DNA of 35,703 bases from a virus (taxonomy: Duplodnaviria > Heunggongvirae > Uroviricota > Caudoviricetes), in IMG/VR virus record IMGVR_UViG_2547132279_000002; one strand, 5' to 3'. Position numbers and translations under genes: made by a program. The stretch's first letter is position 1. The number at the start of each line of letters is the position of its first letter. Under the pieces are notes generated by a model. That model saw only the letters and a program-made list of their open reading frames with translations. It ran no database searches and was not told the DNA's origin. Shown here one piece after another: positions 3,673-35,703 of this stretch.

Positions 3673-3687
3673 CGCTGACTCTCCGGA

Positions 3688-4428: not shown

Positions 4429-4435
4429 ATCGTCC

Positions 4436-5406: not shown

Positions 5407-5417
5407 ACATCCCCCTT

Positions 5418-5771
5418 TCAGCGGCGACGGTTAACGGCAGGCGGCACGCCACGCCCAAGCCAGAGATGACAGCTTCCGCCATCATCCGGCGAAACCCGGT
5501 CTATCCAGAAGTTTTCCTCACCGATGGTCAGCGTGTCTCCACGCCGCAGCTGCCGCACCTCATCAGTCCGGACAAACAGGGACGGGCTGGAGCCTTCAAC
5601 GCGCACGCCCTGTCCGGCATAGCTGATATTTTCAGGGTCATCAAAAACACCACGTATCACAGCACCGGACTGCTCACCGGATGTCATGGTGGCTGACGTT
5701 CCCATGTACCCGCGTATCGTTTCATCAGCGCGGGCAATGGCAGCATCGAACAGGTTATCGAAATCAGCCAC
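5418..5771 (-). CDS. FII: head-tail connector protein FII
   Basis: 117-aa ORF MADFDNLFDAAIARADETIRGYMGTSAT..., matches lambda gpFII. Confidence 0.9.
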   Translation of the reverse strand: MADFDNLFDAAIARADETIRGYMGTSATMTSGEQSGAVIRGVFDDPENISYAGQGVRVEGSSPSLFVRTDEVRQLRRGDTLTIGEENFWIDRVSPDDGGSCHLWLGRGVPPAVNRRR

Positions 5772-5782
5772 AGCGCCTCCCG

Positions 5783-6181
5783 TTATTGCATTCTGGCCAG
5801 GCCACGTTCTGTCATTTCGGCTGCCACACCGGCAGAGACACGAAACGCCGTTCCCGGCAGCACAAATGCCACAGGTTTATCCCGCGTGGCGTGAAGTGCA
5901 TCAGTATGCAGCGTCACCAGTGCCACGACCGTGACCAGTTCAGCCGTATCCTGAATCACGGTATCCGGCTGCGCTGATATCACCTCATTTTCATGCCCGG
6001 TCAGCACATTTTCCCGGCTGAGAGGGGTGTCCTGACCGGCAGTTTCATCCGTGTCATCAAGCTCTTCTTCCAGCTCTGCCACACGAAGCGCCAGTTCTTC
6101 TTTCGTTCCCGTCAAACTGATATCGCGGTTCAGTTGCTCACCCAGCTCCTGAAGACGGGCAATCAGTTCATCTTTCGTCAT
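5783..6181 (-). CDS. FI: DNA packaging protein FI
   Basis: ORF contains MTKDELIARLQELGEQLNRDISLTGTKEELALRVAELEEELDDTDETAGQ..., like lambda gpFI; start set at the internal ATG preceded by GGAGG. Confidence 0.85.
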   Translation of the reverse strand: MTKDELIARLQELGEQLNRDISLTGTKEELALRVAELEEELDDTDETAGQDTPLSRENVLTGHENEVISAQPDTVIQDTAELVTVVALVTLHTDALHATRDKPVAFVLPGTAFRVSAGVAAEMTERGLARMQ

Positions 6182-6204
6182 GAACTCCTCCACAGAGAGA
6201 AAAT

Positions 6205-6218
6205 GGCCCCGAAGGGCC
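6205..6218 (-). other. perfect GC-rich hairpin (ggccc-cgaa-gggcc) in the E-FI intercistronic gap
   Basis: Seen directly: inverted repeat ggccc / gggcc with a 4-nt loop between the E stop and the FI ribosome binding site. Confidence 0.5.
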
Positions 6219-6222
6219 ATGA

Positions 6223-7248
6223 TTACGCCAGTTGAACGGACACGAACTCATCAGGATCAGCCAGCAGCATCAGCGGTGCTGACTGAATCATGGTGAACTC
6301 ACGCGCCGGATCGCCGGTGGTCACCCAGTTTTTCGGGTAACGGGCAGAGGCGTTAATGCCTTCGCGCTGTGCGTCCGCATCCTGAATGCAGCCATAGGTG
6401 CGCAGACCGCGAGCCTGAGTGTTCCCCAGCACCATCGTGTTGTCCGGCAGGAAGTTCTTTTTGACGCCGTTTTCCACGTACTGTCCGGAATACACGACGA
6501 TGGCCACATCGCCATACATTCCCTTATAGGACACCGCTTTGCCCAGGTCTTTTACCGCTGTCTCCAGCTCGGAATGAGAGCCGCGACGGGTATCCAGCTT
6601 CTCCTTGACGGCTTTGAAGGAACGGAACAGCGCCCAGCCTTTCGGGTCAAACACGATGATATTCACCACACCGCTGGCGTTCAGCGCGTAGGCTTCGATA
6701 TCGTCGGTCGGGTCATACGTGGACTTGTCACGCTTGCTCCACTCCGTGCCGCCGGACTGCGTGATGTTATTCGCCGCACTGCGGCCCATATCCACCTCAA
6801 CCGGATCGAAGGCTTCACCGGTCATGGTGTATTTGCCCTTAAGCACGGCAGAAACTGCCTGCATCTCTTCGACCTGGGCAATCGCCAGATTTTCATCCAG
6901 CATATTCTGCCGAATAATACGGCGACGACGGTAAGCCGGGTCCGCCAGATTCTGCGGATCTTCATCCGGCAGGCGACGCAGGGTCATCTGCGGATTCACC
7001 TCATGCTTGGGTTTGACATATCCCGGCGTAAATTCAGAGGTGGAGCCGCCACGGGAACGGATAACCTCACCGGAAACAATCGGCGAAACGTACAGCGCCA
7101 TGTTTACCAGTCCCGGAATTTGTGAGAGATAGACTTTCTCCGTGGTGAAAGGATAGGTTTCACGGAAAAACAGGCGCAGAAACAGCGGATCGAACTTAAA
7201 GTGATGCTGGGTCGATGCCAGTAATTCTGCAGTTGTATATACAGACAT
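6223..7248 (-). CDS. E: major capsid protein E
   Basis: 341-aa ORF MSVYTTAELLASTQHHFKFDPLFLRLFFRETYPFTTEKVYLSQIPGLVNMALYVSP..., matches lambda gpE. Confidence 0.95.
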   Translation of the reverse strand: MSVYTTAELLASTQHHFKFDPLFLRLFFRETYPFTTEKVYLSQIPGLVNMALYVSPIVSGEVIRSRGGSTSEFTPGYVKPKHEVNPQMTLRRLPDEDPQNLADPAYRRRRIIRQNMLDENLAIAQVEEMQAVSAVLKGKYTMTGEAFDPVEVDMGRSAANNITQSGGTEWSKRDKSTYDPTDDIEAYALNASGVVNIIVFDPKGWALFRSFKAVKEKLDTRRGSHSELETAVKDLGKAVSYKGMYGDVAIVVYSGQYVENGVKKNFLPDNTMVLGNTQARGLRTYGCIQDADAQREGINASARYPKNWVTTGDPAREFTMIQSAPLMLLADPDEFVSVQLA

Positions 7249-7261
7249 AAATTATTTCCAT

Positions 7262-7282
7262 AAAAAAAGCCGCACAGGCGGC
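7262..7282 (-). terminator. hairpin plus U-tract between D and E (terminator or attenuator-like)
   Basis: Minus strand reads GCCGCCTGTGCGGC followed by TTTTTTT, located after the D stop and before the E start. Confidence 0.45.
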
Positions 7283-7303
7283 CTTTGTTGATGAAGGGGA
7301 AGA

Positions 7304-7636
7304 TTAAACGATGCTGATTGCCGTTCCGGCAAACGCGGTCCGTTTTTTAGTCTCGTCGCTGGCAGCCTCCGGCCAGAGCACATCCTCATAACGGAACGAG
7401 CCGGACTTGTAGAACGTCAGTGTGGTGCTGGTCTGGTCAGCAGCAACCGCCAGAATGCCAACGGCTGCACCGTCGGTGGTGCCATCCCACACAACCAGCT
7501 TACGGGTAGTGCCATCCAGCATCAGCGGGGTCATTGCAGGCGTTTTCGCACTCAATCCGCCAGGCGCAATTGCTGTATGAGCCGGATCACTGTTACCCAG
7601 CGGCTGGTAATGGTTAAACTCTTCTTTTGTCGCCAT
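7304..7636 (-). CDS. D: head decoration protein D
   Basis: 110-aa ORF ...[32 protein letters not shown]...[11 protein letters not shown], matches lambda gpD. Confidence 0.95.
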
Positions 7637-7645
7637 AACTGCCTC

Positions 7646-8053
7646 TTATACCGGTAAAGCTTCAGGTGTATTAAGTAATTCTTTATTGGTATCAGATGCC
7701 AGGTTACCTGCAGCCAGCGGTGCCGGTGTACCCTGCATCAGACGATCCAGCGCAGTGTCACTGCGCGCCTGTGCACTCTGTGGTGCTGCAGCCAGAATGC
7801 GGCGGGCCGTTTCCACGGTCATTCCGGGGGTTTCTGCCAGAACGCGCGCCTGTTCTTCGCGTCCGTGAGCCTCCTCACAGTTGAGGATCCCCATAATGCG
7901 GCTGTTTTCTGCCGCAACCGCAGCGGTGATCTGCGCGTTCACGTCCGGCTGCGCCGCGCTGGCGTTTTCGCCCTCCGTCGCTGGCACCACGTCAGTAACG
8001 TCAGCCTGCGAAGCAGTGGCTGAAACAGTTGTTGATTGAGTCTCTTTGGTCAT
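7646..8053 (-). CDS. Nu3: scaffolding protein Nu3 (in-frame internal start within C)
   Basis: Internal ATG giving MTKETQSTTVSATASQ... to the shared stop; position follows the lambda C/Nu3 nested arrangement. Start placement is inferred. Confidence 0.55.
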   Translation of the reverse strand: MTKETQSTTVSATASQADVTDVVPATEGENASAAQPDVNAQITAAVAAENSRIMGILNCEEAHGREEQARVLAETPGMTVETARRILAAAPQSAQARSDTALDRLMQGTPAPLAAGNLASDTNKELLNTPEALPV

Positions 8054-8957
8054 TCGCCCTCCTGAGAGACGGGATTTACGTGCATCCAGTGCATCACGCA
8101 TAACGGTGATCGCATCGGTGCTGTTGACAAGTTCATCAGCCAGTCCGGCATCAATGGCCTCCTGACCGCTGTACACTGCAGCCTCGGTATCCAGCACAGC
8201 CTGCACGGACAGGCCGGTATATGCCGACACCTTCTGCGCAAACATCCGGCGGGTTGCATCCATCCGGGACTGCAGTGTCTCCCGGACGTCATCCGGAAGA
8301 TGGCTGTAGGGGTTGCCATCCACCTTATGGCTGCCGCTGTAAATCAGCGTGATTTCCACGCCCTGTTTCTCCAGCGCAGCACCGTAATTACTGTGAGCCA
8401 TCATGACGCCGATGGAGCCTGTCCGGGCGGTCTGCGTGACCAGACGCCGGGAGGCGGCGCTGGCAAGCAGCTGACCTGCACTGCAGTTCATGTCGTTGGC
8501 CAGCGCCCATACCGGTTTTATGTCTCGCACACGGGCGATGATGTCAGCACAGTCAAATGCTCCCGCCACCATCCCGCCCGGTGTGTCCATATCGAGCAGA
8601 ATGCCGTCCACCATCGGATCGCTGGCAGCCTGTTGCAGACGGGCGATAATGCCGTTGTAACCGGTCATTCCCGAATACGGCTGCAGCGCCCGCGTCCGGC
8701 TGACCAGCGTACCGGACACCGGCAGCACGGCGATGCCGTTCATGACCTGATAACTGCGGGCCTGTCGTGGTCCGTCATCATCACCGGATAACGCCAGCGC
8801 CGCGGGTGCCTCTCCGGCAGTCAGGCTGTCGCCGGACACCGCATCCGTCAGGCGACTGATCCCAAGCTGGCCTGCAAGCGCACAAAAGAAAACCCGCGCA
8901 TAGGCGGGTTCAAGCATCAGCGGCTCATTAAAAGCCATGCTGGCAATATGCGGGAGA

Positions 8958-8977
<20 letters not shown>
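7646..8977 (-). CDS. C: head maturation protease / scaffold C
   Basis: ORF contains VTAELRNLPHIASMAFNEPLMLEPAYARVFFCALAGQLGIS..., matching lambda gpC; start placed at GTG (8975..8977) preceded by GAGGAGGAGAAGA; the longer ORF in the track is an upstream extension. Confidence 0.85.
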
Positions 8978-12582
<3,605 letters not shown>

Positions 12583-12612
12583 GTAAGCGACTCGTCAGAA
12601 CCGTATTGATAT

Positions 12613-14184
12613 TTACTGAGAGGTCAGATCAACTTTCCAGGGCAACAGATCGCGTACCCGGTTTGCCGGCCAGTCCTGGATATGTTCAATGACGTAACGC
12701 AGCCACTTTTCTGGCTCCACATTGTTCAGACGGCATGTGCCGATCAGCGAGTACAACACCGCCGCATGTTCACCACCGCTGTCGGAACCCGCAAACATCC
12801 AGTTTTTCCGGCCTACGACCACTCCCCGTAAGGCGTTCTCTGCGATGTTGTTGTCGATTTCCACCCAGCCATTACTGCAGTACACGTTCAGTGCATCCCA
12901 CTGTTTCAGCAGGTATGCGAACGCTTTTGCCGTATCTGAGTGACGCGACAGTGTTTTCATCTGTTGCTGTATCCAGTCATACAGTGACTGCATCAGTGGC
13001 GCGGCTCTGGCTTTTCTTGCCGCCAGACGCTGTTCTGCTGAACAGCCCCGGACCTCTGCCTCGATGGCATACAGTTCACCGATACGCTGCAGGGCTTCCG
13101 TGGTGATGTAGGTGGGCGCTTTTGCATGCACATCGTGGATTTTTCTCCGGGCATGAGCCATACACGCGGCTTCCGTTATTCTGCCGGATTCGTATAACGC
13201 CCGGTAACCACCGTAAGCATCGGCCTGAAGCACACCGCTGTAACCGGCCAGGTGATTTTGTGGATGGATACCTTTCCGGTCCGGACTGTACGCGAACCAG
13301 ACCGCCGGGGGCATCTGTGAACCGGCGTTACGGTCATCACGGACGTAGACCCACAGCCGGGCTGTCCGGGTTTTACCGCTGCCCGGCTCCTGGACCGGGA
13401 CGGGGATATCATCAGCATGGACTTTACCGGGCATCAGCACATACTGGCGCAGGACGTCATACAGCGGCTCCAGCAGTTCAGCAACAGCACCTGTCCAGCG
13501 CCCCAGTGTGGCACGGCTCAGCTCCACTCCCTGACGACGGTATATTTCTGACTGGCGGTATAACGGCAGATGGTCTGCATACTTCCCGGTGACGATATGA
13601 GCCAGAAGCCCCGCTCCGGCATAACTGCGTGCAATGGGTTTTGAAGGTACTGGTGCCTGCACGATATGGTCGCACCGGCAACAGGCCAGTTTCGGACGTT
13701 GTGTTTCGATAACCTTAAAAGCGCTGCTGATAAGCTCCAGTTGCTCTGACACATCACACCCCAGAGGACTGAGGTCACCACCACAGGCCGGGCAGCATTC
13801 CTCTTCCGGCCGGATGACCCGGGTTTCACGGGGAAGTGAGGCCGGTAACGGCTTACGGGCTGAAGACTGGCGCAGGGCGGATGGCAGTACCGGGTCATAT
13901 TGCTCACCCAGCGTTTCCGCCATTTCTTCCTGAAGTGCGCTGATTCGCTCCTGGGCTTCCTGTATCTGCCGTTCGGTTTTAGCGCGAAGTTTTTCTGAGC
14001 TTTTACCGAACTGCATGCGCTGCAGTTTCGCAACCAGCGCCTTCAGCCGGTTGATTTCGGAAGCATAAGCCGCCACCCGCTGTGAGAGCAGGCGGTTGTA
14101 TTTCGCCATCTGGCGGATGGTGTCCTGTTGCGTCTGCAACAGTGCCCGCAGGCGGGCATTCTCATGAGCAAGTGAGGTGTCCAT
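12613..14184 (-). CDS. IS66-family transposase (Orf3/TnpC)
   Basis: 523-aa ORF with N-terminal coiled-coil, CxxC...CxxC zinc-finger-like segment and DDE-type core as remembered for IS66 transposases. Confidence 0.85.
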
Positions 14185-14203
14185 ATCCTCACTTTACAAC
14201 GGG

Positions 14204-14551
14204 TTATATGCGGATGCCAGCGCGTTCCGTTCGTTTCGGGTGCTTCCAGTTGATACCTTCAAGAAGCATAGATAACTGAGCCGGAGTAAGGTGCACCTTG
14301 CCGTCACGGGTAACCGGCCAGACGAAGCGGCCCCGCTCCAGGCGTTTGGTGAAGAGGCACAGTCCGTCACTGTCAGCCCACAACACTTTTATCTGGTCAC
14401 CCCGGCGTCCGCGGAAGATGAACAGATGCCCGGAGAACGGGTCATCCTTCAGGACGTTCTGAACTTTTGATGCCAGGCCGTTAAAACCATTTCGCATGTC
14501 GGTGATACCGGCAACCAGCCAGATACGCGAACCGGCAGGGAGAGATATCAT
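14204..14551 (-). CDS. IS66 Orf2 (TnpB accessory protein)
   Basis: 115-aa ORF MISLPAGSRIWLVAGITDMRNGFNGLASKVQNVLKDDPFSGHLFIFRGRRGDQIKVLWADSDGLCLF..., characteristic IS66 Orf2. Confidence 0.85.
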   Translation of the reverse strand: MISLPAGSRIWLVAGITDMRNGFNGLASKVQNVLKDDPFSGHLFIFRGRRGDQIKVLWADSDGLCLFTKRLERGRFVWPVTRDGKVHLTPAQLSMLLEGINWKHPKRTERAGIRI

Positions 14552-15201
14552 TAGTGGCTGCTCCCTTTCATTTCGCGGATAAGTGTCTGTAATAACGCCG
14601 GTGTCAGTTCACCTTTCAGCCTGAGAGTTCCGGCCGGCAGAACCAGCTCACAGCACAGACTGTCGGGCGGTGTATTTATCTGTTCAGGTATCTGCACTGG
14701 TGCCGGGATTTTATTATCCGGCTCCGGAGTTAACGTCACGGGAAGTAGCGATGTTTCATGTTCGCCGGTCGGCTGCAGGCCGCCGTTACGCCAGAGATGC
14801 CGCCAGTTAAAGAGCAGGTTATCGTTGATTCCGTTCTCACGAGCTATTTGTGCGACACAGGCACCGGGTAAAAGAGTTTGCTGAACAAGCCTCCATTTAA
14901 ACTCCGGTGAAAATCGGTTCCGGCGGATTTTCTCTGTTTTCACAGGCTGAGTCACTGTCGGGGCTGAAGGGTATCGCCCCGGGAACAGAGCCCGGGCCAG
15001 TTGCACGCAGGAATATTCTCCGGAAAGAGGCCAGTCAGTGAATACCTGGTGAAATCGCCTCACCAGAGAAAAAATGGCGGTTTTGCTGATACCGGTCTGC
15101 GCAGAAATGCGCGGGTACGACAGTGACTCGTCAAATCTCAGTTGTAGCACACGCAGGATCAATTCCGGATTGTCTGCCAGTACCGCTTTTCGTGCATTCA
15201 T
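14551..15201 (-). CDS. IS66 Orf1 (TnpA accessory protein)
   Basis: 216-aa ORF immediately upstream of and overlapping Orf2 (ATGA), typical IS66 organisation. Confidence 0.75.
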   Translation of the reverse strand: MNARKAVLADNPELILRVLQLRFDESLSYPRISAQTGISKTAIFSLVRRFHQVFTDWPLSGEYSCVQLARALFPGRYPSAPTVTQPVKTEKIRRNRFSPEFKWRLVQQTLLPGACVAQIARENGINDNLLFNWRHLWRNGGLQPTGEHETSLLPVTLTPEPDNKIPAPVQIPEQINTPPDSLCCELVLPAGTLRLKGELTPALLQTLIREMKGSSH

Positions 15202-15286
15202 CTTAAATGTCCCTTTACTGCGAAAATGGACATTAGTATCGGAAACAGGAAAGGGAGGCGAAAGACGGTTTAAATGAGACGGTTAC

Positions 15287-20823: not shown

Positions 20824-21185
20824 CATTCATCTCCCAGTTCGGTGATGGTCAGTTCCAGCCTCCCACCTTTGGTAACAGGCATCTTCACAACGCGGTAATC
20901 AACGACCTGAGCATCATCCAGCCAGAAACCTGCTTTAGTGAGTGCGTCAAAAGCGGCTTTTTGCAGATTATCCAGGTCACGGCGACGGCGATCCGGCATG
21001 TGGCACTCAATGCGGATTTTCACAGGCATAGCCAGGCCGATATCCAGCATTGCGTTTTTAATGATTCGGGCGACGTTATCGCGGTATGCCTGCCCTTCTG
21101 CGCTGATGTGCGTGCGCCCGCGATTATGCCGGTAGTAGCGGTTATTGCTCGGAGGCCAGGGTAATGTGATGCTGTAGGTATTCAC
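20823..21185 (-). CDS. rusA: Holliday junction resolvase RusA
   Basis: 120-aa [50 protein letters not shown]...[34 protein letters not shown], matches RusA. Confidence 0.9.
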
Positions 21186-21472
21186 GCCTTAATAACCCCC
21201 TCTTTCAGCCAGATAACCTGTGTTCTCGCCATACCTTCCAGCGCGCATTCTTTTGCATATGCAGCATCGACAAAATGTGTGCGGCGGTCGATTTCGTCGT
21301 GGCAGGCAGAACATGCAATGGTGGCAATCAGGTCTGGCGGTTTGATACCGGTACCGCACAATCCAGCCAGCCGGATATGTGCCAGTACAGACGTTTCAGG
21401 GTTGCCATTACATACGCCAGGGATTCTTACCTGGCATTCCCGACCACGCGCTGCTTTTCTCAAATCAGCCAT
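21182..21472 (-). CDS. YbcO-like protein (DUF1364 family)
   Basis: ORF contains [64 protein letters not shown]..., cysteine/histidine-rich, as DLP12 YbcO; start set at the internal Met. Confidence 0.7.
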
Positions 21473-21635
21473 GACTCCTCCTTGCTGCCAGTCGCAACCA
21501 TTTTTTATCAACCAAGCTGGCGGTATATCCGAGCAGTGTTGGTATTTCGGAAGGCTTCAGCTCAGGTTTACGCTTACGACGATTTGGTACTCTGTAAATG
21601 TGCCCGTTCATGACACGAATAAGCGGTGTAGCCAT
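21465..21635 (-). CDS. ninE: NinE-like small protein
   Basis: Hand-translated 56-aa [59 protein letters not shown], basic, in the ninE position between ninB and ybcO; start overlaps the ninB stop. Confidence 0.5.
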   Translation of the reverse strand: MATPLIRVMNGHIYRVPNRRKRKPELKPSEIPTLLGYTASLVDKKWLRLAARRSHG

Positions 21636-22090
21636 TACTCCTCCTGCTTGTCGCGCAGCAGCTGGAACTCGCAGCTCTGCGGAATAGTCAGGTGGCAGCC
21701 AATATTCATCGCCCAGGCTTCAACCTTACACAGGAAGACATACATCTCTCCGGTATCAAGATCGGAGGTATGGCGTAACGACTGGATAGTAGTGATTTCG
21801 CCGGTTACGACATCAACCAAGTCCTTGGTTTCATAACCGAGGTATGTGTGTTTGAGTGCATCTTTTACCCATACTGCAGTAGCGAACGTTTTCCCCCTGC
21901 TGATGAGGTACTCGCTGATTTCGCTGTACCACATGTGGCTGAGTGCATTCTGGGAAAGACTGCGTCTCTCGCGCCACGGTTTAAGCACCATGCGAAAGCA
22001 TTTTCCGTCCTCCAGATAAGGCTGGATCTGCTGACCGATAGTGGTGAAGTTACCGCGATGTAATTTGATGCCGTCTTGTGGGAGGTTCAC
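21635..22090 (-). CDS. ninB: NinB / YbcN-like recombination protein
   Basis: 151-aa ORF; segment [24 protein letters not shown] resembles the lambda NinB motif RNRSLDQNRKLWACLGDVSRQV; position matches the nin region. Confidence 0.7.
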
Positions 22091-22612
22091 GCTTCACCTC
22101 CGCAGAGGTCAAACGTTGGATGCAAAGAATCGCAGGTGCATTTCTGCATCTGTGAAGGGAGAAGAGAGTTTAGATTGTATGTGCGCATAAACGTCCCCGT
22201 TTAGCGCAGAAGTCACCGGAGGTGTTCAGGCTCCGATGCGATAATTATGACGATCTGATTTTGGAAAATCAAATTTAAGTAACCGCCAACCTATAATTTT
22301 CAATCAAGATTTCATTTATTAGCTCACTCATATAAAAATACATTACAACGTTTTTATCTCTTAATTTATGAAGGCAACCTCGAAAAACAAATCACCCAAA
22401 CACTTTAAAACAATTAAACCCGTTTAAAATTACAATTACATTTAGAAAGCAAACTTTCAAAAGATGTGATGATACAATTGCATAAAACAAATACTTGGGG
22501 TAAAATATAAAAATAACACTCCCAGCTTAACGCTAGGTGGCGGTAGCGTGTATTTTTCAAATACGCCTATCACCCCATTATGTTTTTTCATATTTAAGAG
22601 ATTGGTTATATA

Positions 22613-24399
22613 ATGGAACTAATATACACTTATATCCACAATTATAAAGGTTTAAATAAGCTGTCCCTCCCCACCTCAAGTAAATTTACCTTTAGCCATA
22701 AAGGTAACGTCCTTACAATTGCTAAGAAAGATTTAAGTCGTGACTATTATAGCAATATTCCCTGTACATTAATTTTAGGGAAAAATGGTGTTGGAAAGTC
22801 ATCAATTTTAGATTTCATTAGTAGCTTTATTTACGATTTTGAAGGTAGCGGTTATAGCATCTGGAATGAAAATGATAAACTTATAATTATCACAAGCAAT
22901 TGCAAACCTCCTGTAATATTATCCAAAATGCAAACGGAACTAATTGATAATAATGAACATTTTTTTAGAAGAAACAAAATCAATCTAATAAAGATAAATA
23001 ACACAATCGACCTCAAAAGTATGTTAGTTGGACAAAAAAGAAAAAAAACGATTCGATTTCTAAAGATTTATCACTGTCATATTTTTTGCAAGGCAGTAAA
23101 ACACGCAATAAGAAATTACTCAAGCAATTAATTTCATTTTCAGACCACAGTTCATGGGCTAAAGACAATTTATCAAGACTTAATACTAAATTTCAATTTG
23201 AAATAGAAAACTCACCAGTATATAAAATAAATTCTATTATAAAAAACAATGATATTGGTGACAAAGGACTTTTTGGAGCTATTGAATACTTTTTTGATAC
23301 GTTGAATGATAGAATTAAAAACAATAAACTCCCTAGATATATTGAACGTGATTTAGATTCTTTAGGTATTTCACTTGTGGATATACTCAATCATGGGATA
23401 GATTACGATGAAGATTTTATTATTAGCATTATTTTTAACAAAGAAAGATCATTAAATTTCCTCGCAACCTTTTCATATCACAAAATAATTTACTTGATGC
23501 TTTTGCCTGCAATAACATGGCATTTACTCAAGACATCAAAAATCCCTAAAGACATATGTGAGACTGTTTATTTATTTTGCTTGTGTCGCGCGTATCTTGA
23601 AGAAAAAGATCCAGCAAAAACTATATTAGAGACTTTAGATGAATTTAACGTTAATGTTAAATTTCAGTCAAAAATAGAAATGTTATCTGAACATATCTCC
23701 GACATTATAGGTAATATAGCTGATATATTAGAAAACACAGCAAGAGACCCAGTTGATAGTTTATCTTTCACAGTTGAAGAACCAAAGCAGATTATGGAGT
23801 TAATAAGATTAGTTGATAGGTTACCAAATGGCGTATCATCGCGATTTAAGTATGGTTGGGATTCACTTAGTTCAGGAGAGTTTGCAAAATTAAACCTTTT
23901 CAATCAACTTTATGATTCTATAGAACATAGCAACAGCAAAAATATTATAATATTATTAGATGAGTGTGATTTATATCTACACCCTGAATGGCAACGAGTT
24001 ATTTTTTCAGAAATTATAGATTTAACATTAAGATATAAACAAAGTAAAAATATTCAATTAGTATTTACAACTCACTCCCCTATACTCGCAAGTGATTTTT
24101 TGCCATCAGATATAATATATCTTGAAAGAGATCATAATCAAGGAACCTATACTAAGAAAGTAGAGTTTGGTTTCGGAGCAACCATATCAGAATTATATAT
24201 AAATGGTTTTTTTATTGATGCTACAATAGGACAGCACGCACATAATTATCTAAACTCAATAATAAAAAACTCAGATGACGGTAATTTAAATAAACATCAA
24301 AAAACCATACTATCACAAATTAAAAATAAACTTCTCATAAATCTTATTGATCTGAAGTTAAACAAAAACAATGATAAAACAGATTCTTTTGAGAAATGA
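22613..24399 (+). CDS. ABC-type (AAA15/AAA21-like) ATPase, reading frame broken at a poly-A run (~23034..23049); PtuA-like
   Basis: Two overlapping ORFs (22613..23131 and 23086..24399) in different frames. Walker A LILGKNGVGKSS in the first; signature-like LSSGEFAKLN, Walker B IIILLDECDLYLHPEW and H-loop FTTHSP in the second. The second frame is open from 23002; the switch falls in aaaaaagaaaaaaaa. Confidence 0.65.
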
Positions 24400-24408
24400 G
24401 TAAAAAAA

Positions 24409-25601
24409 ATGATAAAAATAAACAAAGACTTCAATGTTGATGTAAAAATATCCTTTTCTAAAATAGTAAGCAAAGTTAATAAACGCGTGAAGCAGAGGAA
24501 GTTACTGAACATTACTCCCGATGAAGTAGAGTTTCTAAATACAATCAACAAAAAAACTATCAGAAAATTAGTTTTTTCAAAACCCAAACGATTAAAAAAT
24601 ATAATCATCAAAATATACAACAAACACCCAATTGTGTGTGAGTACTATTCTCCTGATTATTTTTTAAGGCACTTAAATTTACAACCATTAACAAACCTAC
24701 AATTACCTTTAAAAACAAAAGAAACAAAAAAATAGTTTATAATGAACTAGCACATGCCATCAAAATAATCACATCTTTCTCTCAAACTACACAAAGCCTA
24801 ATACTTGAGGATATATTAAATACACATTTCTCACCACAAAAATTATCTAGTTTAAGAGATAAGATTCTTAATCTTATAAGTATCAAGAATGGTGGTCCTT
24901 TAAAGGAAAATACCATTAAGTTATTTCCATCATGGGTTAAAAATATTTCTGAAATATTTAAATACTCACTTATTGATAGAGAAACAGCGTATCAATTGAA
25001 CAGTTTTTTAGACATTAGCATATGCCCATATTGCAACAGTGAAGAAATTGAACAAGTAGAAGACCATACAGGTACTAGCTACAGGCCAGCATTTGATCAT
25101 TTCATACCTAAGTACAAATATCCGTTGATCTCCTTTAGTTTATTTAACTTAATTCCTAGCTGCACTAAATGCAATAGTACTTATAAAAAATCACTCGATC
25201 CGATCATGAGCCCATTTTCAAATCCTTTTCTTGAAGGTGTAAATGACACTCAGCTTTTTGATTTTAATTATGACATTGATTATATATATAGAGATGGCCA
25301 AATTGATGATGATCACATTCAAATTATACTAAAAAAACAAAAAAACAACATCGATGAAAACATGGCTAAACTTAGCATAGAGAATAGATATAATTCACGC
25401 ATTAGAAAGAAAGCAGTTAGATTAATTGCAAAGAGAGCATTTGATCTAAAAGCTTATGAAGAAAATTTCATTATAGAACCAACTCTTTTCGCTACTTTCG
25501 GTTACGAGACTAACATTGAGCCGCTAAAGCATATGCATAAAAAACTTACTCAAGATGCAATATTAGTATTCTGCAACAAACAAGTACCGTTAATTGAATA
25601 A
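24409..25601 (+). CDS. HNH endonuclease-domain protein, frame broken at a poly-A run (~24711..24731); PtuB-like
   Basis: ORF 24996..25601 carries CPYCNSEEIE...FDHFIPKYKYP...NLIPSCTKCNSTYK (HNH with two CxxC pairs) but starts at TTG; its frame is open back to 24657 with no ATG and abuts ORF 24409..24735, which ends in gaaacaaaaaaatag. Confidence 0.55.
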
Positions 25602-25946
25602 GTAAAATGAAAGGATATCGAGCTATATAATGTAGTATGTCGAAAAATCAAACAGAAAAAAATCGAATAGTTACACTGTGCTCGGTGCTGTCTTCATGCT
25701 CCGTTCCTCTCGTAGGCTAGTAAAATTCGCGTCATCACCGGGCTTGGGGGCCATCATCGAAAATCTGATTGGTGCTTTTGTGCCAAGAGATTTCCTCTTC
25801 GGTTACCAATCGGTAGTGAATCGTTCGCTAGATATTGCTGACATCGACCAGATCGCCCTGCTTTGTCAGAATGTTTACGGTCTGGTTGATGCCGCAGGAT
25901 GAACTATATTTTCTGGGGGAAAGGTTTTATGTGTCTTGAAGGTAGT

Positions 25947-26669
25947 TCAGGTTAGCTTCACTCCCGTTAATTGTTTACGTCTTCTCAGTCCGTGCTTCTC
26001 GCGAATCTCAGCCAACTTTGCCAATCCTTGTATACGGGATAGCGGCTTACCACCAATAACCGGAAGCTGTTTAACTGGCTCGGGAATCGCCTCACCACGG
26101 TTAATTCTCGCAGTCATATGGGCAAGTTCATCGGCAGCCTTGCGCCGTAATTCCGAGTCAGTCAACGCATTGGCCCGCATATTCTGGTACAGGTTGGTAA
26201 CCAACCAGTAGTGCGCGTTTGATTTCCATGGATAAGACTCTGCGTCCGGATACAGGCCACGCTTCCGGCAATACTCGTAAACCATATCAACCAGCTCGCT
26301 GACGTTTGGCAGCCCGGCGCTAACGGATGCTTCTTCCCGGCACCATGCAACAAACTGCCCGGGTGATGGCAGAAATGGTCGATTCTGCCGACGGGCTACG
26401 CGCATTCCTGCGTTAACCTGTTCCATTGTGGCGATCCCGTTTTCCCGGAAAGCCAGCACCCACTGGCGGCGGATTTCGTTCAGTTCGTTCTGGTCCCGGT
26501 TAGCCAGGCTCGCCGGGAAAGTTGCCAGTAACTGGCTGAACACACCATTGATAATCTGCGCTACCTGCTGTACCTGCGGCTTTTCGTCGTACTGTTCCGG
26601 CATGTTGTTGGCGATCCGACGCATCTGCTCACGGTCAAAGTTAATCATCTGTGCGGCGATGTTTTTCAT
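25947..26669 (-). CDS. P: replication protein P (DnaB helicase loader)
   Basis: 240-aa ORF MKNIAAQMINFDREQMRRIANNMPEQYDEKPQVQQVAQIINGVFSQLLATFPASLANRDQNE..., near-identical to remembered lambda P. Confidence 0.95.
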   Translation of the reverse strand: MKNIAAQMINFDREQMRRIANNMPEQYDEKPQVQQVAQIINGVFSQLLATFPASLANRDQNELNEIRRQWVLAFRENGIATMEQVNAGMRVARRQNRPFLPSPGQFVAWCREEASVSAGLPNVSELVDMVYEYCRKRGLYPDAESYPWKSNAHYWLVTNLYQNMRANALTDSELRRKAADELAHMTARINRGEAIPEPVKQLPVIGGKPLSRIQGLAKLAEIREKHGLRRRKQLTGVKLT

Positions 26670-27595
26670 AGATCAACCCCGTAAATCCAGTCTGTGTTTG
26701 TCAGGTCGAGTTTTGGTTTGCTGGCTGTCACGCCTGCCTGTTGCTTGTTACGGTTGATTTCGAGCTGGGTCCACTTGTCGCGGAGTTTGGCCGGACTTAG
26801 CACGTTACCGGACCAGAAGTTGTCCTGGCATGCCCAGCGGAACAGCACGCACATGTCGCGGTGGTTACGTCCGTCACGTTCACGCATCAGGCGGATATCG
26901 TTAGCCCACCCTGCAAAATTCGGTTTTCTGGCTGATGGCGCGATGGTCTTCACCATGTCAAACATCCACTCTGCGGCGGTCAGGTCTTCTGCTGTCCCCC
27001 ACTTGCTGCCGCTCTGAATCGCAGCATCCGGTTTCACCACAGGAAGGTCGTTTTCTGGCTGGTCAGAGGATTCGCCAGAATTCTCGGACGAATAAGGTTT
27101 TATATTGTCTTTTGTTAGTTTGTCTTTTGTGTTTACCTGATTCGGGTAAACGTCTTTACCTGATTTGGGTAAACTTTTTTTACCTGATTCAGGTAAATTT
27201 ACCTCTTTCAGGTAAACTTTATTTTTCTTACCTGATTCGGGTAATGTTGACCATTCACTGACCACATTATTAATGCCGGTATTCCGCCCGCTCTGAATAA
27301 GAATCCCACGCTTTACCAGAACGCTTTTTGCAGCAGAACACTTGTGCGGCAATATCCCGGTCAATTCGGAAAGTTGCTCGTTGCTCACCCAATCCAGTTT
27401 TTTATTAAAGCCATATGTTTTGCGCATGACAGCCAGGAAGACCAGAAGCTGGTGCTGTGTTAATCCGGCCAGCATCACAGCTTCCAGCAACTCATTTGCA
27501 ATGCGCGTATAACCATCATCGAGATCTGCCACGCGCGGCTCCTTTTGTGCCACATCCGGCACTGGAAAATTGAATATCTCAGCAGTGTTTGCCAT
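26666..27595 (-). CDS. O: replication initiator O
   Basis: C-terminal two thirds match lambda O (YPNQVNTKDKLTKDNIKPYSSENSGESSDQPENDL...WIYGVDL); N-terminal DNA-binding part differs from lambda; start set at ATG preceded by GGGAGG (cat at 27593..27595). Confidence 0.9.
   Translation of the reverse strand: MANTAEIFNFPVPDVAQKEPRVADLDDGYTRIANELLEAVMLAGLTQHQLLVFLAVMRKTYGFNKKLDWVSNEQLSELTGILPHKCSAAKSVLVKRGILIQSGRNTGINNVVSEWSTLPESGKKNKVYLKEVNLPESGKKSLPKSGKDVYPNQVNTKDKLTKDNIKPYSSENSGESSDQPENDLPVVKPDAAIQSGSKWGTAEDLTAAEWMFDMVKTIAPSARKPNFAGWANDIRLMRERDGRNHRDMCVLFRWACQDNFWSGNVLSPAKLRDKWTQLEINRNKQQAGVTASKPKLDLTNTDWIYGVDL
27133..27243. repeat. replication origin iterons within O (five copies of palindromic ~16-bp repeat TACCTGATTCGGGTAA, spaced ~23-24 bp) with adjacent AT-rich tract
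   Basis: Seen directly: tacctgattcgggtaa (27133), tacctgatttgggtaa (27156), tacctgattcaggtaa (27180), tacctctttcaggtaa (27199), tacctgattcgggtaa (27228); encode the repeated LPESGKK peptide in O; AT-rich run at ~27090..27130. Confidence 0.8.
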
Positions 27596-27681
27596 AATTC
27601 CTCCCGCAATGAGTGCGTTACGATTTGCGCCTGAAAGTCGGCTCTGTTCCCGCAGACCGGCTTTCGCCATTTCTGAGCCTG

Positions 27682-28221
27682 TCATATTGCCCCCAACATG
27701 GTGGTAACCATCGCCATCAATGGACCAGCCAGATCCGGGTCCACACGAAACATCGACACAATACCTTCACTAATTTCCTTCAGTTTCTGGTGGCGTGGTG
27801 CGTTGAGAATGACAGCCTGTTTTGCCTCACTGAGTTCCTTTTCCATTTCAGCCAGCCGAGTCATGAAGCTATCCTGCTCAACCAGGTAACCGCGATATTC
27901 CAGCGGTAGTACCGCCAGAATTGCCGGGGTCAGTTCACGCACGTTATTTCGGTATTTTTCAGAATCGAATTTGTTATCGAGGAAGCGGAACAGCTTCTGG
28001 CGTGCACGGCTGACATCATCAGGGAAATCGATGGTGCCGTCGCCCTGCTCCCGATACTCATTCACAATGAGTGCGGCAACGACATCCTGATTATCTACAG
28101 CCGACCAGGCGCGGACGGCATCACGGATTTTTTCGTGGTCTGGCACCTGTTTTGTTTGAGAACGATTTATCACCGCAGTCGGGCTAAATCCGCTAGTCTG
28201 TTGGTATGTAAGTGGTTGCAT
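27682..28221 (-). CDS. CII-position regulator, YdaT-like
   Basis: 179-aa ORF in the cII position (between cro-like gene and O); segment TPAILAVLPLEYRGYL resembles the Rac YdaT motif IPAILAILPRELRHRL as I remember it. Confidence 0.55.
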   Translation of the reverse strand: MQPLTYQQTSGFSPTAVINRSQTKQVPDHEKIRDAVRAWSAVDNQDVVAALIVNEYREQGDGTIDFPDDVSRARQKLFRFLDNKFDSEKYRNNVRELTPAILAVLPLEYRGYLVEQDSFMTRLAEMEKELSEAKQAVILNAPRHQKLKEISEGIVSMFRVDPDLAGPLMAMVTTMLGAI

Positions 28222-28290
28222 AATTGACTCCTTTAGTTTGAATTGACTGTTAAGTTGATTGCTTATTGTTAAAGAGCGTGAAATGGAAAT

Positions 28291-28521
28291 TTAAGCTGCG
28301 TTCTTTTCGGTGTGTGGAAACAACTTCGGAAGATCCGGGCGAATCTGGTATGCCTTCACTACTCCACCAGTAGCCGTAACAATGCTGCCGACATGTTCAG
28401 GGGATACCTTTGCTTTGTTGTGAAGCCACTTATAGACGGCCTGCTGTGAAACTTCGCAAGCAGCGCCCAGTTTCTTTTGTGAACCAACGATATTGATCGC
28501 TGTTTTGATAGCTGGGTTCAT
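28291..28521 (-). CDS. cro: Cro-like / YdaS-like HTH regulator
   Basis: 76-aa ORF divergent from cI; helix-turn-helix-like segment LGAACEVSQQAVYKWLHNK. Confidence 0.7.
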   Translation of the reverse strand: MNPAIKTAINIVGSQKKLGAACEVSQQAVYKWLHNKAKVSPEHVGSIVTATGGVVKAYQIRPDLPKLFPHTEKNAA

Positions 28522-28625
28522 AACAACCTCCGTGGTTAATTTGAATCAAGATTAAAACTATGGTTGTTTTTAGTCAACAACCATTTTCGTTTGATGGAAT
28601 AAAACCTTGGTTGTACATTTGGACT
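28522..28625. promoter_or_regulatory. immunity operator/promoter region (OR, divergent PR / PRM) between cro-like gene and cI
   Basis: Four copies of half-site ACAACC/GGTTGT in 104 bp, including the 25-bp palindrome ATGGTTGT-n9-ACAACCAT at 28560..28584; AT-rich; sits between divergent repressor genes. Confidence 0.55.
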
Positions 28626-29315
28626 ATGAAAACAACACTCTCAGAAAGACTTAAAGAAGCCAGATTAGCGCGAGGCCTTACACAAAAGGCGCTTGGGGAT
28701 TTGGTCGGGGTTAGCCAGGCTGCTATTCAGAAAATCGAAACAGGGAAAGCTAATCAAACAACTAAAATCGTGGAGATCGCGAACGCTTTGGGTGTGCGCG
28801 CAGAATGGTTATCTTCTGGCGTTGGAAATATGTCAGACAGTACAGTGCAACCAATACAATCAACTGTCAGCCATTCCAAATACTTCAAGATTGACGTTCT
28901 TGATATAGAAGTCAGTGCTGGGCCGGGAGTCATCAACCGTGAGTTTGTAGAAGTTCTACGCTCGGTTGAGTACTCGTTTGACGATGCTCGTCACATGTTC
29001 GATGGTAGGAAGGCGGAAAATATCCGCATCATTAACGTGCGTGGTGACAGCATGTCAGGAACGATCGAACCAGGTGATCTGCTGTTCGTTGATATCACGG
29101 TTAAATCTTTCGACGGTGATGGTATCTATGCGTTTCTGTACGACGACACAGCCCATGTAAAGCGCCTGCAAATGATGAAGGATAAGCTGCTGGTTATCTC
29201 TGATAACAAGAGCTACTCACCGTGGGACCCGATCGAGAAAGACGAGATGAACCGGGTGTTCATCTTCGGTAAGGTTATTGGGAGCATGCCCCAGACGTAC
29301 AGGAAACATGGATAA
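28626..29315 (+). CDS. cI: CI-type prophage repressor (HTH + LexA-like S24 peptidase domain)
   Basis: MKTTLSERLKEARLARGLTQKALGDLVGVSQAAIQKIETGK... HTH; C-terminal GDSMSGTIEPGDLLFVD...AHVKRL with Ser/Lys dyad; start set at internal ATG 28626. Confidence 0.85.
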   Translation: MKTTLSERLKEARLARGLTQKALGDLVGVSQAAIQKIETGKANQTTKIVEIANALGVRAEWLSSGVGNMSDSTVQPIQSTVSHSKYFKIDVLDIEVSAGPGVINREFVEVLRSVEYSFDDARHMFDGRKAENIRIINVRGDSMSGTIEPGDLLFVDITVKSFDGDGIYAFLYDDTAHVKRLQMMKDKLLVISDNKSYSPWDPIEKDEMNRVFIFGKVIGSMPQTYRKHG

Positions 29316-29381
29316 TCAGTACTGTGCTGATGAGTCGTTTAGGGGATAGTAAATTTAATTAGAATTAGACGAGAGCGATTT

Positions 29382-30245
29382 ATGGATTGTGACGCTTTAC
29401 AGGATATAAAAATCTCTCTTAGGTATGACGGAAAAGATGCTTTAAATCATGAAATAGATTTGAACTGCCTAGGAGAATCCCTAAAGGGTTTTTCTAAAGT
29501 TCTCTCAACAGCAGCTTCTTTCTCTGTTACACAAAAATATAGTAAATACATTAATTATCAGGAAGTTAAGGTTTACGCACGCGAAGCAAAAGCTAACTGC
29601 TTTACTCTTGAAGCAGTTCTTAACTTCGCCACTCAGAACCAGTTGTTCTCGGGGATCGCCGCAACTATACTTGGCGCAATACTACAATATATTTTTGCGA
29701 GAAATTCTAACAAGAAAGATGAAATGAAAGCTTTGCAGCAGTCACTTGAAAAGGCCATAGAGGCACTAGGAAACAAGGATGCTGGAACCATTGATAAGTT
29801 GATCTCTTTGATTGACCGAATGGCTGTAGAGCTTCGCCCCTCTGTAAGGCAGGCAGTATCACCTATTGGTAATACTTGCGATCAGATAAGTGTTGCAACA
29901 AATGTTGACGGCTGCCTTCTAAAAGTTAACGAGAGAGATAAAGCTGAAATTGATAGGCTTGATGATGATGAAGTTCTCGGTCTTCGTGAGTATCGTGCTT
30001 TTCTTACAGAATTTGATGCACAAAATATGACAGCTAAAATAATTTTAGATGGTGATGACTCAAAAAAGAGAATCACTGCTGAAATTAGCGATCCAGCTGC
30101 AGGAAAGAAGAATAACCCGTATATTAGAGCTCTTAGTGCATATATATCAACCAAAGGTGATCCATCTGCAGTATTCACTATAACCGCAAAGGCTACTGTT
30201 AAAAAAGGCCAGATAAACAGGTTATTTATTGTAGATGCGAAATGA
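29382..30245 (+). CDS. hypothetical 287-aa protein in the rex position immediately downstream of cI
   Basis: Long ORF co-oriented with cI, visibly more AT-rich than cI, with one hydrophobic segment [19 protein letters not shown]; followed by a strong terminator; no family recognised. Confidence 0.6.
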
Positions 30246-30249
30246 TTTC

Positions 30250-30276
30250 CCCGGCCGTCGTGCCGGGTTTTCTTTT
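30250..30276 (+). terminator. rho-independent terminator ending the cI operon
   Basis: Stem cccggc / gccggg with 6-nt loop followed by TTTTCTTTTG, 5 nt after the stop codon. Confidence 0.7.
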
Positions 30277-30369
30277 GCCTCCCCTCATCACACAAACCGT
30301 TCAAAAAACCACCACGACCTCGCTTCAGTTATCGCTGTGCGATGCAAGTCACAAAATAAATCCATCCTA

Positions 30370-30450
30370 AATACAACCAGTTATATCTAAAACAACCAAT
30401 AAAACAACTTTTGTTGTTGACGATAAAACAACTATAGTTTTAAATAAGTT
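30370..30450 (+). promoter_or_regulatory. candidate OL/pL region (operator half-sites and leftward early promoter)
   Basis: Same ACAAC/GTTGT half-sites as OR (acaaccag, aacaaccaat, AACAACttttGTTGTT palindrome); possible -35 TTGTTG (30411) and -10 TATAGT (30433) with 16-nt spacer, oriented toward gam-bet-exo. Confidence 0.4.
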
Positions 30451-30638
30451 CATCGCAACAACACAACGATACGGCAACTACCTGATTCACCGTTGCGATG
30501 ACCGCTTAGATCCGCAGCTTGAATTTCAGCAGGCTTCGGGGAGTGCGAGGGATGAAACGGACGCGTGAACGTCGGTGTGACCAGCTGAAATCAACTCAAC
30601 ATTTCATACCTTAGTCGCTTCAACGAGGCGGCTTAGTT

Positions 30639-30929
30639 ATGACAACCGGCGGCCATCCACCGCCTGAATACGCGCAGAAGTCTTTATATGTTCAGCAGCC
30701 CAGCTTACGGGCAGGAGTTTTTATGGTTCATCAACATTACGGAACGCAGACCGTTAATCGCGGTGCGGTCATGCCAGGAATGCTGGTCAAACGCAAAGAT
30801 GGTACCTGGACTGCATCAGCTAATTTACGCGGACGACTTTATCTGCATCGCGGCATTGAGCGCACTTATACCCGTGACTTGCTCGTGGAAGTTTTTCTCG
30901 ACGGACGCGGCAACGGTCTGAATCACTAA
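30639..30929 (+). CDS. hypothetical protein in the kil/cIII position upstream of gam
   Basis: 96-aa ORF, no recognised family; co-oriented with gam-bet-exo. Confidence 0.35.
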   Translation: MTTGGHPPPEYAQKSLYVQQPSLRAGVFMVHQHYGTQTVNRGAVMPGMLVKRKDGTWTASANLRGRLYLHRGIERTYTRDLLVEVFLDGRGNGLNH

Positions 30930-31004
30930 TCCCCTTTCCTGTTTTCCGAATCAGCCTGGCATTCCGCGGGCGATTTTTTCACAGCCATTTTCAGGAGTTC
31001 AGCC

Positions 31005-31301
31005 ATGAACGCTTATTACATTCAGGATCGTCTTGAGGCTCAGAGCTGGGCGCGTCACTACCAGCAGATCGCCCGTGAAGAGAAAGAGGCAGAACTGGCA
31101 GACGACATGGAAAAAGGCCTGCCCCAGCACCTGTTTGAATCGCTATGCATCGATCATTTGCAACGCCACGGGGCCAGCAAAAAAGCCATTACCCGTGCGT
31201 TTGATGACGATGTTGAGTTTCAGGAGCGCATGGCAGAACACATCCAGTACATGGTTGAAACCATTGCTCACCACCAGGTTGATATTGATTCAGAGGTATA
31301 A
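31005..31301 (+). CDS. gam: host RecBCD inhibitor Gam
   Basis: 98-aa [63 protein letters not shown]..., matches lambda Gam (short form). Confidence 0.9.
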
Positions 31302-31306
31302 AACGA

Positions 31307-32092
31307 ATGAGTACTGCACTCGCAACGCTGGCTGGGAAGCTGGCTGAACGTGTCGGCATGGATTCTGTCGACCCACAGGAACTGATCACCACTCTTCGCC
31401 AGACGGCATTTAAAGGTGATGCCAGCGATGCGCAGTTCATCGCATTGTTGATCGTCGCCAACCAGTACGGCCTTAATCCGTGGACGAAAGAAATTTACGC
31501 CTTCCCCGATAAGCAGAACGGCATCGTTCCGGTGGTGGGCGTTGATGGCTGGTCCCGCATCATCAACGAAAACCAGCAGTTTGACGGCATGGACTTTGAA
31601 CAGGACAACGAATCCTGCACATGCCGGATTTACCGCAAAGACCGCAATCATCCGATCTGCGTTACCGAGTGGATGGATGAATGCCGCCGCGAACCATTCA
31701 AAACCCGCGAAGGCAGAGAAATCACGGGGCCGTGGCAGTCGCATCCCAAACGGATGTTACGGCATAAAGCCATGATTCAGTGTGCCCGTCTCGCCTTCGG
31801 ATTTGCTGGTATCTATGACAAGGATGAAGCCGAGCGCATTGTCGAAAATACCGCATACACTGCAGAACGTCAGCCGGAACGCGACATCACTCCGGTTAAC
31901 GATGAAACCATGCAGGAGATTAACACTCTGCTGATTGCCCTGGATAAAACATGGGATGACGACTTATTGCCGCTCTGTTCCCAGATATTTCGCCGCGACA
32001 TTCGCGCATCGTCAGAACTGACACAGGCCGAAGCAGTGAAAGCTCTTGGATTCCTGAAACAGAAAGCCACTGAGCAGAAGGTGGCAGCATGA
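31307..32092 (+). CDS. bet: single-strand annealing recombinase Bet
   Basis: 261-aa [69 protein letters not shown]..., matches lambda Bet. Confidence 0.95.

Positions 32093-34610: not shown

Positions 34611-35703
<1,093 letters not shown>

Follow-up and report, generated by a model that had tools for sequence, protein, structure and literature searches.

A candidate defense ATPase gene split at a poly-A tract in a lambdoid prophage of enterotoxigenic Escherichia coli

Homopolymer-slippage pseudogenes are known among accessory and defense genes, in which the length of a run within an open reading frame (ORF) changes recurrently by one step, mostly by deletion, and leaves a truncated product. 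In the phase-variable mod and hsd genes of Haemophilus, Neisseria, Helicobacter and Campylobacter an in-gene repeat sets the frame and its length is polymorphic among close relatives, and phase-variable restriction-modification genes are an established precedent for such behavior in defense. The dnaX gene and insertion sequence (IS) elements make use of -1 frameshifting on slippery heptamers, and in Buchnera and Blochmannia frameshifts in poly(A) tracts are rescued by transcriptional slippage (cited in PMC5009743). Here we describe a gene for an ABC-type ATPase that is divided over two reading frames at a composite poly-A tract. It is found, together with an adjacent gene for a protein with HNH motifs, in a stretch of 35,703 nucleotides (nt) of tailed phage DNA (Caudoviricetes, IMG/VR record IMGVR_UViG_2547132279_000002), hereafter the window, which is the complete contig AELC01000040.1 of assembly GCA_000166575.2, i.e., the 2010 draft genome of the enterotoxigenic Escherichia coli (ETEC) strain TW10828. 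From the comparison of sequences we consider it probable that the split is a real loss-of-function mutation produced by replication slippage at an ordinary hot spot, and not a dedicated switch.

Among the systems mentioned, the locus is closest to the homopolymer-slippage pseudogenes. The same recurrent one-step changes of run length within an ORF are found and nothing essential sets it apart, except that here two adjacent runs (A7 and A8, with one G between them) both vary and that three states are present in one clone. The finding is in this sense ordinary and already known in kind, a homopolymer frameshift pseudogene in a known candidate defense family. With the phase-variable mod/hsd genes it shares a frame-setting tract inside the gene with length polymorphism among close relatives. 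However, the tract is here a short poly-A, only about 2.5% of the copies are off, neither revertant nor compensated alleles appeared among those retrieved, other runs of the operon decay as well, and the tract length is not conserved. The heptamers are the same as those of dnaX and the IS elements, A_AAA_AAG in the intact gene (eight of nine lineages) and A_AAA_AAA in the window, but here there are no stimulators, the tail of the -1 frame is not conserved, and what is conserved is a single in-frame ORF. As for the endosymbionts, the poly-A frameshift described here could also be partly corrected at the level of the mRNA, although their tracts are longer than our A8 and the partner gene is broken at a run of three A's that is not slippery.

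Two halves of one ATPase gene

The whole gene spans positions 22613–24399 of the window (plus strand, like all the features of the operon given below). When intact it codes for a PDC-M62A-like protein of 595 amino acids (aa) and of the ABC/AAA_15-AAA_21 type; in the window, the loss of one nucleotide has divided it in two. An earlier note, made from the letters of this DNA alone, had described an overlap between an ORF at 22613–23131 (frame 2) and another at 23086–24399 (frame 1), with the downstream frame already open from 23002, and had proposed that both belong to an ATPase whose frame changes inside an A6-G-A8 tract. The coordinates and frames are as described, the downstream frame being free of stops up to 24399 and preceded by a TAA at 22999–23001, and the repaired 595-aa protein is matched by ATPase profiles of PADLOC and Pfam. 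The note had also taken the tract to be the only place in which the two frames could be joined, which is not strictly so, since by frame logic any point in 23002–23128 would serve. Frame logic alone being insufficient, the change is located within the tract by comparing the window with intact copies, and these have A7 in the first run, to which the lesion is therefore assigned.

Direct reading and alignment give the tract (23034–23048) as six A's (23034–23039), a G (23040) and eight A's (23041–23048). Passing from the upstream to the downstream frame requires a -1 shift, so that the window must be one base short, or have two extra, compared to a continuous gene. The intact tract reads CAA AAA AAG AAA AAA AAC and codes for QKKKKN. 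After the deletion, the shifted frame begins behind the Gln-Lys of this oligo-lysine motif. The ATPase is cut after residue 143 and continues with 29 residues unlike the intact protein (the last 27, TIRF...YSSN, being out of frame) to a stop at 23129–23131, which gives the N-terminal fragment of 172 aa annotated as WP_000420489.1 (22613–23131). The remainder of the ATPase is read in the -1 frame at 23047–24399, within the frame open from 23002, and has been annotated as a 437-aa ORF with a TTG start at 23086–24399 (WP_244425631.1). The Walker A motif GKNGVGKS (22778–22801) is found in the first ORF, and the signature LSSGE (23866–23880), the Walker B IIILLDECD (23944–23970) and the H-loop TTHSP (24067–24081) in the second. 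With Walker A parted from the other three, a single catalytic domain is divided and the ATPase is inactivated. Separate translation of the 437-aa ORF from the TTG at 23086 was considered and found unlikely, with no Shine-Dalgarno-like purine stretch in front of it and a product devoid of the P-loop.

Strain TW10828 is an ETEC isolated in Guinea-Bissau in 1996 (PMC4309559). It belongs to lineage L3, is close kin of ETEC-2264 and has been re-sequenced by nanopore as GCA_032368225.1 (PMC10761095). The same 3.4 kb region is present in five complete E. coli genomes at 99.3–99.9% identity. In four of them the tract is A7-G-A8 and the gene a single ORF of 1788 nt annotated as "AAA family ATPase" (595 aa); the fifth, strain 90-9280, has A7-G-A9 and a truncated annotation. 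Eight more copies, from metagenome and IMG/VR contigs, were retrieved by a DNA pattern search tolerant to run length, and all of them had A7-G-A8. This tract with one ORF is therefore found in 12 of the 14 copies that were not chosen for a frameshift, which indicates that the window is one A short in its first run. Over the 3.4 kb the window and ETEC-2264 differ by no substitution and by three 1-nt indels. Since only a single base of difference from the intact allele of ETEC-2264, and no substitution, falls in the ATPase gene, a chance overlap of ORFs is excluded, and the sequence comparison identifies the frames at 22613–23131 and 23002–24399 as the two halves of one 595-aa ABC-type ATPase.

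The comparison with related prophages that the earlier note had recommended thus has a clear outcome: the single ATPase gene is the conserved arrangement and the two-gene arrangement is not. That two separate genes might be the natural state was rejected, as homologs at identities from 26% to 100% are all single ORFs over both halves. These single ORFs, of 583–612 aa, were found in E. coli, Morganella, Proteus, Citrobacter, Enterobacter and Atlantibacter. At 58–90% identity, each of them is followed by a partner ORF, of ca. 371–398 aa in seven loci and split in two in one (L088). A scan of genome contigs added distant homologs only (29% identity or less over the whole protein), useless for the comparison of the tract. 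In homologs down to 58% identity the oligo-lysine motif is retained, in the form G-[QKR]-K-K-[KR]-[KR]-N. Run lengths vary among the homologs (A8-G-A8, A9-G-A3, A6-G-A4, A6-G-A5, A5-G-A and others) and the lysines are kept. In these genes of 27–32% GC the AAA:AAG ratio goes roughly from 2:1 to 9:1 (about 4:1 in most), so that the long A runs can be explained by AAA being the preferred lysine codon of low-GC genes.

One detail of the codon usage deserves mention. In all of nine lineages at 58–100% protein identity, Lys142-Lys143 are encoded by the pair AAA-AAG (at the equivalent of 23033–23040 of the window), although the synonymous sites around it are saturated and AAG makes up only ca. 10–35% of the lysine codons. 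As a consequence of this pair, the dnaX-type heptamer A_AAA_AAG stands in frame in eight of the nine lineages; a -1 slip on it in the intact gene would yield a product of ca. 150 aa with Walker A only. The invariant G may simply have been retained as an interruption in what would otherwise be a run of 7–16 A's.

Tract alleles and their explanation

The frequency of the different tract states was obtained from exact look-ups among ca. 15 billion proteins. The intact A7-G-A8, in four alleles of the 595-aa protein, was present on at least 469 contigs (262, 166, 40 and 1). Three shifted states were found, A7-G-A7 on seven contigs (172 aa), A7-G-A9 on three (150 aa) and A6-G-A8, that of the window, on two (172 aa). 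The off alleles were thus about 12 of roughly 480 contigs (ca. 2.5%), located at tips or in small groups. Writing the tract as the lengths of its two runs, the products of 8/8, 6/9 and 8/7 and of changes by -2, +2, -3 and +3 were all absent from the same protein set. From the haplotypes of the flanks, at least six or seven separate one-step events can be counted in these near-identical prophages. The 6/8 state is found on two backgrounds, the window and the Logan contig SRR28255171 (which has the other flank haplotype and an intact HNH gene), 7/7 on at least three and 7/9 on two (90-9280 and SRR8634260). One further 437-aa C-terminal product was found on a fourth allele. The most telling case is a clone to which the window belongs. 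Its positions 20947–31669, GCA_002459265.1 (locus L099) and SRR8634260 (L100) are identical over 10.7 kb bar the tract and a run of three A's (A3) in the HNH gene of the window, and the tract is 6/8 in the window, 7/8 in GCA_002459265.1 and 7/9 in SRR8634260. The other A7/A8 runs of the 10.7 kb stretch are invariant among the three assemblies. The clone is marked by a strain-specific substitution in the phage gene P (26320 C), a variant present on eight contigs, one of them longer than 1 Mb. Judging from these alleles, the composite tract is a recurrent mutational hot spot.

The shifted alleles being rare and at the tips, they are better explained as sporadic losses of function than as the states of an evolved switch, and their rarity (ca. 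2.5%) fits mutation-selection balance and does not fit a balanced phase polymorphism. Replication slippage, i.e., slipped-strand mispairing, in the poly-A run would remove one A of the A7, and the deletion that reduces A4 to A3 in the HNH gene of the window would have arisen likewise. Within the ATPase gene, the composite tract would be the main target of mutation. It has been reported that E. coli ORFs contain fewer A7 runs than expected, which was ascribed to transcriptional slippage or to a high indel rate (PMC4066793). A trickle of full-length ATPase might still be produced from the split gene, either through ribosomes that slip by -1 on A_AAA_AAA or through an extra A inserted by the RNA polymerase in the A8. 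The leaked protein would have the intact length and one Lys-to-Arg change and, to judge by the literature, less than ca. 1% would be expected without a stimulator. The earlier note had listed a homopolymer sequencing error, an inactivating slippage mutation and a slipped-strand on/off switch. Inactivating slippage is the one favored by the recurring alleles and by the broken partner gene of the window, little speaks for the switch, and a sequencing error is less probable than slippage but still to be reckoned with.

If the draft contig had under-called the homopolymer, TW10828 would truly have A7-G-A8 and an intact ATPase. We regard this as unlikely, though by no means negligible, and consider it likely that the tract deletion is a real mutation and not an assembly error. 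The contig comes from the 2010 draft, which is said to have been obtained by 454 pyrosequencing, a technique that miscounts homopolymers. However, along the ca. 32 kb that align with ETEC-2264 (the patch at 322–490 aside), the only 1-nt indels are the three of the operon. The best-aligned 19.7 kb contain 13 runs of at least 7 bases and 46 of at least 6 (22 of the latter outside the AT-rich island in which the operon lies), and both A8 runs are as in the reference. In addition, of these three indels one belongs to the relatives, being the A6 variant known at 24550 in the ETEC-2264 group, the second deletion specific to the window lies in a 4-base run, where errors in consensus homopolymers are rare, and the identical 6/8 state, as well as 7/7 and 7/9, is found in independent assemblies that include NCBI pathogen-surveillance and Logan contigs. 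Several observations do weigh against slippage in TW10828. The base call at the tract comes solely from the consensus of a draft contig, and neither deletion is present in the closest relative with the same P-gene variant, GCA_002459265.1, whose sequence over 10.7 kb is otherwise the same. The 108-aa HNH fragment resulting from the second deletion was found by exact protein look-up on the window contig only and the 172-aa fragment on just one other, unrelated contig. Neither product was on any contig attributable to the re-sequenced genome, GCA_032368225.1, whose presence in the searched collections was not established. Finally, the three tract states in one clone exceed the variability of the other A7/A8 runs of the region, and room is left for selection, or for a slippage rate above the usual, at the composite tract.

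This last point is also an argument for an evolved contingency switch, in which the poly-A tract would be maintained as a reversible slipped-strand device for a costly or self-toxic defense system in the population that carries the prophage. The tract lies within the ORF and every change of one base (the A6/A7-G-A7/A8/A9 variants) switches the frame, six or more one-step changes arose independently in near-identical prophages with three states in a clone without substitutions over 10.7 kb, and the tract is more variable than the other A7/A8 runs of the same region in the three assemblies. Yet we find such a switch improbable. The off alleles are the few terminal ones already described, neither compensated (6/9, 8/7) nor in-frame (three bases more or fewer) alleles were found among the proteins searched, and no sign of reversal was seen. 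The tract is not conserved as DNA beyond what the protein needs, with lysines kept and run lengths differing among homologs. Other poly-A runs of the operon are frameshifted too, one of them having swept a whole ETEC lineage in what looks like decay, and the window also has a broken partner gene. Contingency tracts are usually longer than A7 or A8, and E. coli is proficient in mismatch repair. We would likewise give little credence to the broader proposal that the tract stochastically turns the PDC-M62 ATPase off and on or that the A_AAA_AAG heptamer sets the amount of full-length protein. If true, an abortive-type (Septu-like) defense system would be subject to recoding or to phase variation by a simple repeat in E. 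coli, which is not known for switching genes by means of repeats; a tract switching reversibly at a high rate would represent repeat-mediated phase variation of a non-restriction defense system in this species. Programmed recoding, by which full-length ATPase would be made from the split gene through -1 frameshifting on A_AAA_AAA or transcriptional slippage in the A8, is highly improbable in spite of an attractive sequence. Right at the frame junction, the zero frame of the window contains a perfect X_XXY_YYZ heptamer (A_AAA_AAA, 23041–23047, read as AGA AAA AAA, with AAA codons at 23042–23044 and 23045–23047), its -1 continuation AAC GAT... is the ATPase frame, and a slip would give 595 aa with one Lys-to-Arg change with respect to the intact protein. 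The heptamers A_AAA_AAA and A_AAA_AAG account for 72% of those in IS1 and IS3 elements (PMC4066793), and the AAA-AAG pair of the intact gene does not vary in the nine lineages. However, the shifted arrangement is not conserved, ca. 97% of the near-identical copies and all the more distant homologs being in frame. No stimulatory structure was detected downstream (fold of 72 nt, z = -0.61; consensus fold of six lineages, -5.9 kcal/mol with zero covarying pairs), nor was a Shine-Dalgarno-like (GGAGG-like) element at the usual distance upstream by direct reading. A conserved -1-frame extension past A_AAA_AAG was not found in the intact homologs, the tails being of 3–19 aa and unrelated. Without stimulators, heptamers exceed a background of some hundredths of a percent by a factor of only 2–10 (PMC4066793), and the A8 is under the run of ca. 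9 A or T reported for efficient slippage of bacterial RNA polymerase (PMC5009743). A leak below 1% is plausible and a programmed event is not.

The partner gene and the identity of the system

The PDC-M62B-like HNH protein is encoded at 24409–25601, has 397 aa when intact and is also frameshifted in the window, where we find a 108-aa ORF at 24409–24735 (WP_000590785.1) and a second frame open at 24657–25601. The HNH-type motifs, CPYC (25023–25034), DHFIPK (25095–25112) and CTKCN (25161–25175), are all in the second frame. The frameshift site is located at 24722–24724, where the window has A3 and every other copy examined A4. As the HNH gene has its own 1-nt deletion in addition to that of the ATPase, the defense system is most likely non-functional in TW10828, and a reversion of the tract alone would not restore it in the window.

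The operon is rich in other length variants. Between the stop of the ATPase and the start of the HNH gene there is an A8 run (24402–24409), which many copies have as A7. The shorter run brings an ATG that overlaps the TGA of the ATPase (ATGA) into the frame of the HNH ORF, which then codes for 401 aa instead of 397, a product found on 92 contigs. This polymorphism is apparently benign, with a possible change in translational coupling. The A7 at 24550–24556, intact in the window, is A6 in ETEC-2264 and its relatives, and the resulting product is found on 200 contigs. In public E. coli assemblies the A7 at 24726–24732 occurs both one base shorter and one base longer, the T7 at 22960–22966 occurs as T6, and a 2-nt deletion at 24899–24900 was found on 38 contigs. 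In all, the operon has nine or more distinct alleles with homopolymer changes or short indels across these assemblies, and its many independent frameshifts lie nearly always in homopolymer runs, which, as far as alleles can tell, looks like an ongoing decay or shedding of the system.

As for what the system is, the intact (or repaired) 595-aa protein matched the PADLOC profile PDC-M62A (E = 3.5e-44, residues 1–570 of 595), the match being split over two frames in the window, and Pfam AAA_21 and AAA_15 above the cut-off. The intact 397-aa partner matched PDC-M62B (1.4e-33), and its gene begins 10 nt past the stop of the ATPase on the same strand, the two genes being adjacent and co-oriented. 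Its match to the Pfam HNH family was weak (18.8 bits, under the cut-off of 21.4), with the CxxC...DH...N...CxxCN motifs readable in the sequence, and a sequence search of the PDB retrieved no match for it. A better described relative is Septu, formed by the PtuA ATPase and the HNH protein PtuB. The likeness lies in the adjacent and co-oriented genes for an ABC-type ATPase and a protein with HNH motifs and in weak matches to PtuA and PtuB. However, a long insert is present in our ATPase of ca. 595 aa, and its partner has 397 aa compared to the ca. 220–250 aa of the PtuB profiles. The partner matched these PtuB profiles at 2.5e-8 to 1.8e-5. The ATPase fell below the family threshold of the NCBIfam PtuA (48.5 bits, cut-off 500, residues 446–540 only), matched the PADLOC PtuA profiles only over its C-terminal 110–140 residues and the PtuA chains of the PDB (E ca. 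1e-7) only at the C-terminal motifs. The relation to PtuA/PtuB being this distant, profile matching assigns the pair to the PADLOC candidate defense system PDC-M62, with a Septu-like architecture, and not to canonical Septu. A literature search on PDC-M62 returned no experimental work, the name being met only in a survey.

For the annotation, this means that WP_000420489.1, WP_244425631.1 and the partner fragments, including WP_000590785.1, derive from two pseudogenes, and a functional defense system in TW10828 should not be deduced from them. This is relevant to surveys that score the presence of defense systems from gene hits alone, and provides an example of how AT-rich, horizontally acquired defense operons decay or are shed via poly-A slippage.

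The island and its prophage

The composition profile and the annotation of the matching loci in the five complete E. coli genomes delimit an AT-rich accessory island of 26–32% GC at 22200–25800 of the window (plus strand), in surroundings of ca. 50% GC according to the profile. It is flanked by genes on the minus strand, ybcN/ninE/ybcO/rusA/quuD on the left and the replication genes P/O on the right, so that in these five genomes the island is transcribed against its neighbors. In all five the host element is a DLP12-type lambdoid prophage, and the ATPase-HNH pair is a moron of a lambdoid prophage in the ETEC strain TW10828. No match to the island was found in the collections of phages (INPHARED) and plasmids (PLSDB), and a promoter and terminator scan of this AT-rich sequence was uninformative, with 23 hits for 20 expected.

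The pair is found in a comparable slot of the nin region in lambdoid prophages of Citrobacter (L083) and Enterobacter (L089), in the latter between the nin genes and the replication gene P. It also appears in unrelated contexts, next to a UvrD-like helicase in Morganella (L079), next to an IS in Proteus (L081/L082), and in Atlantibacter (L084/L085). To the extent that gene neighborhoods can tell, such varied contexts fit a mobile defense cassette.

Some other differences from ETEC-2264 were seen along the window. An insertion of ca. 2.7 kb at 12583–15283 corresponds for the most part (13269–15286) to an IS66-family tnpA/tnpB/tnpC region located elsewhere in the ETEC-2264 genome; the two alignment blocks at its flanks overlap by 11 nt, which may be a target duplication. 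The end of the window (35002–35703) is IS66 sequence as well. At 322–490, in a region of tail genes otherwise 99.3% identical, there is a divergent patch with clustered mismatches and small indels which, from its pattern of differences, is probably a recombination mosaic.

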